A stretch of DNA of 64,000 bases from Escherichia phage 212, in sequence record PQ765507, one strand, 5' to 3'. The translations under genes were made by a program, and so were the position numbers. The notes below the pieces were generated by a model. That model did not search any database and was not told the origin of the DNA. It was given only the letters and a program-made list of their open reading frames with translations. Positions 39,667-39,705 of the stretch are shown in pieces (position 1 is the stretch's first letter; the number at the start of each line of letters is the position of its first letter).

Positions 39667-39705
39667 GGTCTAGAACCATTATAACACTGATTGTTTTAAA
39701 GCAAA
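39667..39705 (-). promoter_or_regulatory. MotA-box/-10/17-mer element oriented antisense to gene 2
   Basis: Minus strand reads TTTGCTTTA - 13 bp - TATAAT-GGTTCTAGACC, the same element as at 4578-4617. Confidence 0.35.

Follow-up and report, generated by a model that had tools for sequence, protein, structure and literature searches.

Predicted MotA-type middle promoters with a common core in Escherichia phage 212, two of them antisense to late genes 2 and 18

Why does a promoter-like element stand between gene 2 and gene 3 of a T4-like phage and point back into gene 2, and why does its 17-bp core recur at other places in the same genome? We addressed these questions in a stretch of 64,000 nucleotides from Escherichia phage 212 (PQ765507; hereafter the window), which the Gaprivervirus phages VR20, VR7, SP18 and P896, all relatives of T4, match at 95–97% identity (VR20 at 96–97%), which belongs to the same genus and which is reversed relative to the T4 map. 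The genes that matter here are gene 2 (DNA end protector; 38798-39631, + strand, stop codon at 39629-39631), gene 3 (tail completion and sheath stabilizer; 39717-40316, + strand), separated from gene 2 by 85 bp, rnlB (RNA ligase 2; 4705-5712, + strand) and gene 18 (tail sheath; 14809-16788, - strand). The identities of rnlB and of genes 2, 3, 18 and 19 agree with the annotation of VR20 and VR7, and the names given to rnlB, gene 2 and gene 3 in the original prediction were thus correct. Beside rnlB, the window also carries a tandem pair of paralogous gene 24 (capsid vertex) copies on the - strand (5731-7014 and about 7015-8300), labelled vertex proteins I and II in VR20. We consider it probable, on the sequence comparisons described below, that three sites in the window form one conserved subclass of MotA/AsiA-dependent middle promoters, two of which would give rise to antisense, anti-late RNA.

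Site 1 (4578-4617, + strand) is the predicted middle promoter of rnlB. It consists of the MotA box TTTTGCTTCA (4578-4587), 13 bp, TATAAT (4601-4606) and GGTTCTAGACC (4607-4617), and the same promoter lies 5' of rnlB in VR20 and JS98. Site 2 (39667-39706, - strand), the predicted antisense middle promoter in the spacer between gene 2 and gene 3, repeats this arrangement on the minus strand with the MotA box GTTTGCTTTA (39706-39697), a 13-bp spacer that carries a TGn extended -10, TATAAT (39683-39678) and GGTTCTAGACC (39677-39667). Site 3 (14735-14774, + strand), a predicted middle promoter of related sequence in the gap between genes 19 and 18, which VR20 and JS98 have and T4 lacks, has the MotA box TTATGCTTTT (14735-14744), 13 bp, TATAAT (14758-14763) and then GGTTCTACGGT; its core (14758-14774) matches the 17-mer at 13/17 positions and is identical to it through TATAATGGTTCTA. 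The discriminator GGTTCT is present at all three sites, and a repeat finder joined them as well (family D8, inverted pair I1). The original prediction had described this repeated layout of box, 13 bp, TATAAT and 17-mer, and it proved real when read directly at sites 1 and 2: the 17-mer at 4601-4617 does lie 5' of rnlB, whose ATG is at 4705, and the copy between genes 2 and 3 is antisense to gene 2, an orientation kept in eight lineages. The related copy proposed at 14738-14773 is also present and extends from box to 17-mer-like core over 14735-14774. Its direction had been overlooked: genes 19 and 18 are both on the minus strand and site 3 is on the plus strand, so site 3 points antisense into gene 18.

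Predicted start points place the sites in relation to their neighbours. Initiation at A4613 would give rnlB a 92-nt leader before its ATG, a transcript from A39671 (minus strand) would reach gene 2 after 39 nt, and one from A14770 would reach the end of gene 18, likewise after 39 nt. Facing gene 19 on the - strand, the late-promoter consensus TATAAATA can be read at 14744-14751 (T4 late consensus, PMC1524935); it falls inside the spacer of site 3, so the late and the middle promoter stand back to back and overlap.

The number of copies exceeds chance. The 17-mer TATAATGGTTCTAGACC has two exact copies in the window, at 4601-4617 (+) and 39667-39683 (-), against 0.10 expected from shuffled sequences (0/100 shuffles attained two copies), and a search of the window at up to 3 mismatches found no further site. 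The strict pattern TGCTTYA-N11-13-TANNNT matched the window six times, sites 1 and 2 included, compared to 1.4 expected, a count that none of 100 shuffles attained. The complete genome of VR20 holds exactly three exact 17-mers, at gene 2/3, at rnlB and directly upstream of uvsY; the uvsY copy maps a few hundred bases past the left edge of the window. Three more VR20 loci carry a related copy behind a MotA box: the gap between srd and modA, where it is antisense to modA, the region 5' of nrdC.6, and the interior of gene 34. Among IMG/VR sequences, three Gaprivervirus genomes carried three exact 17-mers each, and the four isolated matches on unrelated contigs are about the number that chance would give in a collection of that size. 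A corresponding IMG/VR scan for the Dhakavirus variant, for which we used the whole JS98 genome as the comparison, returned mostly chance matches among those listed. In the full-genome search of relatives, too, the 17-mer was above chance frequency: Gaprivervirus genomes contain exactly three copies, all at promoters. A comparison of the window with VR20 points to selection on the core, since several bases are substituted in the spacer of site 1 and none in the 17-mer.

All three sites agree with the T4 middle-promoter consensus, (a/t)3TGCTTtA, 12 ± 1 bp and TAtaaT (PMC2988021). The boxes score 10/10 (site 1), 9/10 (site 2) and 9/10 (site 3), the distance from box to -10 is 13 bp throughout, within the 12 ± 1 bp rule, and the -10 is a perfect TATAAT in each case. 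By eye, the MotA box takes up the -35 position at all three sites, and a sigma-70 scan for a TTGACA-type -35 plus -10, run on site 2, did not call that site. For comparison, the complete set of 58 T4 middle promoters mapped by experiment was extracted from a reconstructed T4 genome. The mapped promoter PnrdC.7 reads TATAATGGTTCT up to its start-point A, a core identical to that of the window, and mapped PuvsY reads TATAATGAATCT, again followed by the A; both initiate at this A, seven bases after the -10. The 17-mer can thus be resolved into the -10 hexamer, a six-base discriminator and the first five bases of the transcript, and the promoter of uvsY is its third exact occurrence in the relatives. 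The proposed fit to T4 middle-promoter spacing was borne out by box, 13-bp distance and perfect -10, and by the identity of the PnrdC.7 core. The genes motA and asiA are encoded by VR20 and JS98, and the window itself does not contain them; because of the homology to mapped T4 promoters, we infer that the sites depend on MotA in this phage, and the precise start points, like any role of the antisense RNA, are inferred as well.

The subclass would be defined by a consensus MotA box, a 13-bp spacer usually with an extended -10 TG, TATAAT, a GGTYYT discriminator and an A start. After early infection, MotA bound at -30 would recruit the host RNA polymerase with AsiA-remodelled sigma-70, and initiation would occur at A4613, A39671 (minus strand) and A14770. 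Site 1 would give rnlB a middle transcript of its own. Sites 2 and 3, having no gene to serve, would produce untranslated RNA that enters late genes 2 and 18 at their 3' ends, ahead of late transcription and as it begins, that is, anti-late RNA under middle control. The identity of the copies would then stem from membership of the subclass together with homogenisation of the start region, by gene conversion or through a reader of the first ~20 nt.

The antisense promoter between genes 2 and 3 was followed across relatives. It is present in eight lineages, namely Gaprivervirus, T4, Dhakavirus (JS98 and relatives), Mosigvirus (O157 typing phage 6) and the four uncultured lineages L024, L027, L028 and L030. 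TATAAT, GG and the A start are invariant over the eight, a GCT(T/A) MotA-box core is retained at about -30 in all of them while the rest of the spacer diverges, and the start region of the orthologues is mostly AGGTC. The T4 copy, referred to below as anti-2, consists of AATGCTTTA, 13 bp, TATAAT and GGGTCT, with AAGTCC from the start point; it lies between genes 3 and 2 and runs toward gene 2 (about 75,988-76,000). It does not figure among the 58 T4 middle promoters that have been mapped, being either weak or never probed. In phages VR7, VR25, TH22 and UPEC07 the promoter persists with a gene for a MobB-like homing endonuclease lying between it and gene 2. Genes 2 and 3 overlap in Klebsiella phage Roth68 and the promoter is missing, which shows that some relatives can do without it; gene order differs in Krischvirus and Pseudotevenvirus, and the anti-2 promoter is absent from both.

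Two further features of this neighbourhood were observed. Acinetobacter phage Acj9 (L180) has a 350-bp gene 2/3 spacer with two tandem antisense copies of GCATATAATGG(G/T)T after similar upstream sequence; both are without a MotA box at the distance seen in T4, and the copies may represent a different promoter type at the same place. The window itself contains a 235-aa ORF (37676-38383, + strand) between gene 53 and gene 4, overlapping the start of gene 4, where VR20 and VR7 have a gap of only 48 bp. Its N-terminal 140 residues share 40% identity (E 9e-28) with the MobB-like homing endonuclease of VR7, and there was no Pfam hit; the gene 53-4-2-3 block is a hot spot for the insertion of homing endonuclease genes.

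The sense strand at site 2 also carries a signal. A predicted hairpin in the RNA running from gene 2 to gene 3 (39640-39693, + strand) has arms TCAGTGTTAT and ATAACACTGA that bracket the antisense -10 and start; its minimum free energy is -23.9 kcal/mol (z -4.3), 0/200 shuffles were equally stable, and covariation of the arms is seen in Gaprivervirus, Dhakavirus and L024. The promoter likeness of site 2 might then be a by-product of selection on this hairpin and on the translation start of gene 3, with little or no antisense initiation. The strength and three-lineage covariation of the hairpin speak for this, as do the Shine-Dalgarno sequence of gene 3, whose ribosome-binding region adjoins the complement of the site-2 MotA box, and the absence of the site from the mapped T4 list. 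However, among the lineages compared, the hairpin is absent in T4, L027, L028 and L030, where box, spacing, TATAAT, GG and A start all persist; missing from four lineages in which the promoter stays, the hairpin is the less conserved of the two features. The same 17-mer also occurs in promoter orientation at rnlB and uvsY without such a hairpin or an opposite-strand gene, and a correctly spaced MotA box arising by chance in 8 lineages would be very surprising. We therefore regard a pure by-product as very unlikely, and the overlapping hairpin and gene 3 start region could account for part of the conservation at site 2.

Several other repeats were noted in the window. Repeated early-type promoters (families D5, D6, D9 and D13; 42649-42711, 42983-43045, 44597-44632, 45094-45150, 45642-45677, 55427-55462, 61718-61756 and 8359-8394) have an inverted repeat bracketing the -10, as in GATGGGATAGT..GTATAAT..TATCCCATC and TATGGA..TATAATGATTCCATA, a geometry like that of the repeat around site 2. 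A hybrid-looking promoter at 55096-55136 (+), GTGTACGCTTAAC...TATAATGATTTTA, contains both an early-type GTGTAC and a GCTT box; it is the third member of repeat family D8. Six ORF starts at 41736-42754 and 54373-55514 (families D2, D4 and D10) share the N-terminus MKTYQEF(I/L), which we take to resemble the capsid-targeting sequence of T4 internal proteins and which suggests a family of internal head proteins. Near-identical GC-rich hairpins, AAAAAGGGACCTTCGGGTCCCTTT, with A and T runs on both sides (pair I2), lie after hoc and in the baseplate region (3995-4025 and 28323-28353) and look like bidirectional terminators.

How widely the core is distributed was determined by a core-pattern scan of the T4, VR20 and JS98 genomes, which gave seven loci: anti-modA, nrdC.7, anti-2, anti-18, rnlB, uvsY and the interior of gene 34. 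VR20 has 7/7 and T4 has 5/7, lacking anti-18 and a positional PrnlB; the scan found 6/7 in JS98, where the remaining one, anti-modA, was recognised by eye. The five T4 loci (anti-modA, PnrdC.7, anti-2, PuvsY and P34i) are all the core matches in that genome. The T4 promoter PrnlB was rejected as the positional homologue of site 1, as it sits in gene 24.2 and has a deviant box, and T4 is without the 131-bp spacer. A middle-promoter consensus between srd and modA, antisense into modA, was seen in three genera (+ strand; T4, AF158101, about 11,862-11,900; VR20, 11,024; JS98, about 11,190-11,230); like anti-2, the T4 copy is missing from the mapped table.

The start regions vary in a pattern that follows the genome more than the locus. 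Gaprivervirus transcripts would begin AGACC at anti-2, PuvsY and PrnlB, and those of T4 AAGTCC at anti-2, PuvsY and anti-modA; the last two T4 promoters have the 20-mer GGTATAATGAATCTAAGTCC in common, and TCTAAGTCC is common to all three. Over positions -6 to +9, identity was higher among paralogues within a genome (0.69) than among orthologues (0.62; label permutation, p about 0.006). Because T4, VR20 and JS98 all use the E. coli polymerase, this concerted change points to gene conversion or to a phage-specific reader of the start region, so that the variants common to a genome would come from homogenisation or from one shared reader. Several copies have a further block in common, TTCCATTCAAT, at about +8 to +20. 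JS98 (NC_010105) has in addition a block CTGGGATAATAGATTAT downstream of the anti-2 and anti-18 promoters (74,902-74,960 and 99,757-99,700), which on the sense strand directly follows the stop codons of genes 2 and 18 and suggests that the two spacers are paralogous cassettes.

The latter observation bears on whether the repeat unit is a mobile cassette, recombined between spacers, whose identity records recent spread and not function. Promoter-plus-stem-loop cassettes (PeSLs), including a middle-promoter version, PmSL, are known from T4-like phages (PMC4122927), and the JS98 gene 2/3 and 18/19 spacers share extra sequence ending in GGGATAATAGATTAT. Start-region variants common within genomes fit such a unit, as do the insertions of homing endonuclease genes, beside site 2 in VR7, VR25, TH22 and UPEC07 and, in the window, between genes 53 and 4. 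The loci are, however, orthologous and stable across genera instead of variably present; identity is limited to 17-20 nt, with unrelated spacers and flanks; and the sites lie in conserved late-gene blocks of the core genome, apparently outside the hyperplastic regions, even if homing endonuclease genes adjoin site 2 in some relatives. PeSLs have a stem-loop immediately upstream of a promoter oriented like the genes served, whereas the inverted repeat of site 2 brackets the -10 and folds in the sense RNA only, and sites 1 and 3 have no comparable upstream stem-loop. A mobile cassette, which we judge unlikely, would at best account for homogenisation and not for the presence of a promoter or for its fixed orthologous positions.

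The TCTAGA at the start site had been put forward as a possible protein recognition site, and one could picture it as an operator through which a dimeric DNA-binding protein governs the promoters. It covers the start site in all three exact copies, and other palindromes stand in its place in JS98 anti-2 (CCTAGG) and in one uvsY promoter (CCATGG; L041). Most copies are nevertheless non-palindromic (TCTAAG in all three T4 copies, and TCTAGG, CTTAGG, TTTAGG and CCTATG), the flanks GGT and CC are asymmetric, and GGTTCTAGACC as a whole is no true palindrome, TCTAGA alone being one. This part of the original prediction did not hold up: the palindrome is not conserved among orthologues or paralogues and recurs only occasionally, as in JS98, so the operator idea fails, and we consider such an operator extremely improbable.

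If sites 2 and 3 are promoters, what would their transcripts do? T4 anti-late RNA, described in hybridisation studies of the 1970s, complements late messages and is made before the late period under delayed-early control. A T4 dRNA-seq preprint reports 150 starts, 22 of them antisense (10.1101/2024.04.04.588121). We looked for signs of a structured cis-antisense small RNA and rejected this candidate for want of a conserved terminator, fold, Rfam match or synonymous constraint. An Rfam scan of the whole window returned three tRNAs only and no match at the sites, and the first 95-97 nt from the predicted starts fold no better than shuffles (z -0.5, +1.1 and +0.3). Terminator-like matches for the antisense transcripts occurred at chance frequency, T4 having none inside gene 2 on the antisense strand; one hairpin lies on the antisense strand of site 2 at 39549-39535 (-). 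Synonymous change in gene 2 is not reduced toward the 3' end, the last windows of the gene being the most variable, and a search elsewhere in T4, RNAs C and D included, for the complement of the shared leader gave nothing convincing. A hidden small gene 3' of site 2 was likewise rejected: no conserved ORF was found downstream of sites 2 and 3, and the short ORFs after site 2 vary by lineage and, by eye, are without ribosome-binding sites. Service of genes 53 and 5 as a middle promoter was considered for site 2, the only site where it is possible, and set aside; a transcript would have to run through gene 2 in antisense, gene 4 and the endonuclease-like ORF, at least 2 kb in all, and serving distant genes is impossible for site 3 and anti-modA, so it offers no general explanation. 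Selection seems confined to the promoter and a leader of about 20 nt. What the comparisons show is the sequence architecture, the statistics, the orthology to mapped T4 promoters and the cross-genus conservation; the most economical reading of the antisense transcripts would be untranslated anti-late transcription at middle times.

The antisense copies might instead be origin-type promoters like those of oriF and oriG, whose R-loop transcripts would prime the leading strand or load clamps near late promoters. The exact 17-mer is the uvsY promoter in relatives, and T4 annotation makes the uvsY transcript the oriF primer and the internal promoter of gene 34 oriG; 2 of T4's 5 core matches are its only molecularly defined R-loop origins. 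Three of the five are antisense and non-coding, the element TCTAAGTCC links two of these, anti-2 and anti-modA, to PuvsY, and T4 anti-2 maps 3.3 kb from oriE, which a review describes as without a nearby middle promoter, the origins having no known common motif (PMC3016281). Like origins of the oriF/oriG type, the window sites have a predicted middle-mode promoter, with a core shared with PuvsY and resembling P34i. Against this stand the annotation of T4 oriE in the opposite direction with an early promoter, the oriA promoter P56, which is without the core, and the use of the same core for ordinary mRNAs (rnlB, nrdC.7). To our knowledge, T4 origin plasmid screens recovered ori(uvsY) and ori(34) only, which we count against an origin function. 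Downstream AT content and the least-stable 40-mer placed the window sites within the spread of the 58 T4 middle promoters, a measure that fails to separate oriF and oriG too. R-loop formation at oriF is reported to require a promoter and an unwinding element but no specific sequence (PMC3016281), a further point against the core as an origin mark. On balance, an origin function for the antisense copies appears distinctly unlikely.

A broader possibility, which we also regard as rather improbable, is that the subclass TATAAT-GGTYYT-A(G/A)G(T)CC with its ~20-nt pyrimidine-rich leader, including the known R-loop origins oriF and oriG and the conserved non-coding antisense promoters anti-modA, anti-2 and anti-18, might be one functional system, with a start region that either is recognised by a phage factor or works through the RNA or an R-loop. 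If this were so, it would account for the joint change of derived variants at several loci per genome, and the sites would supply anti-late RNA whose origin had gone unrecognised, serve as extra places for priming or clamp loading, or do both.

Returning to the preferred reading of sites 2 and 3 as antisense middle promoters, elements of this kind, MotA-dependent middle promoters, are already known, and what sets these apart is their conserved antisense placement and, for anti-2, absence from the mapped T4 set. T4 is the reference for phage transcription and replication, yet no middle promoter is listed in its gene 2/3 or srd/modA gaps in the sources consulted. The predicted antisense middle promoters occupy fixed positions in late-gene blocks, are conserved in at least 5 genera, share their core with the oriF promoter and have start regions that change in concert per genome. 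Their coordinates are open to tests of an anti-late RNA source, of further R-loop sites and of a reading just past the -10 by something other than the polymerase. Even if the transcripts were idle, correctly placed promoters would be added to the annotation of this phage group.

The sites resemble several known systems and differ from each of them. PeSL and PmSL cassettes (PMC2839356, PMC4122927) are, like the window sites, short repeated promoter-bearing intergenic units, one version having a MotA box; in PeSLs a stem-loop precedes the promoter and shares the strand of the genes served, and these units lie in variable regions next to indels, whereas the promoter of site 2 is opposite to the genes, inside a sense-hairpin loop and positionally conserved in the core genome. 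T4 PnrdC.7 has the same core, which in T4 initiates at the indicated A under MotA control; it differs in its locus, in its MotA-box variant CCGCTTTA and in serving a downstream gene in the sense direction. T4 PuvsY shares with the window sites the MotA box, 13-bp spacer, TGG, TATAAT and A start seven bases on. The identical 17-mer is found in the Gaprivervirus uvsY promoter, whereas T4 PuvsY has GAATCT and then AAGTCC from the start point and drives uvsY and oriF, the window copies being at rnlB, gene 2/3 and gene 18/19. T4 P34i is a middle promoter that runs antisense to a late gene, as sites 2 and 3 would, and its core, TATAATGGTCCC with AGAG from the start point, resembles the 17-mer; it lies inside coding sequence and is a proven origin, whereas sites 2 and 3 lie in intergenic spacers. 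As for classical T4 anti-late RNA, we found no tie to specific promoters in the sources consulted and the link to these sites is our own, yet it is the kind of RNA that sites 2 and 3 would produce.
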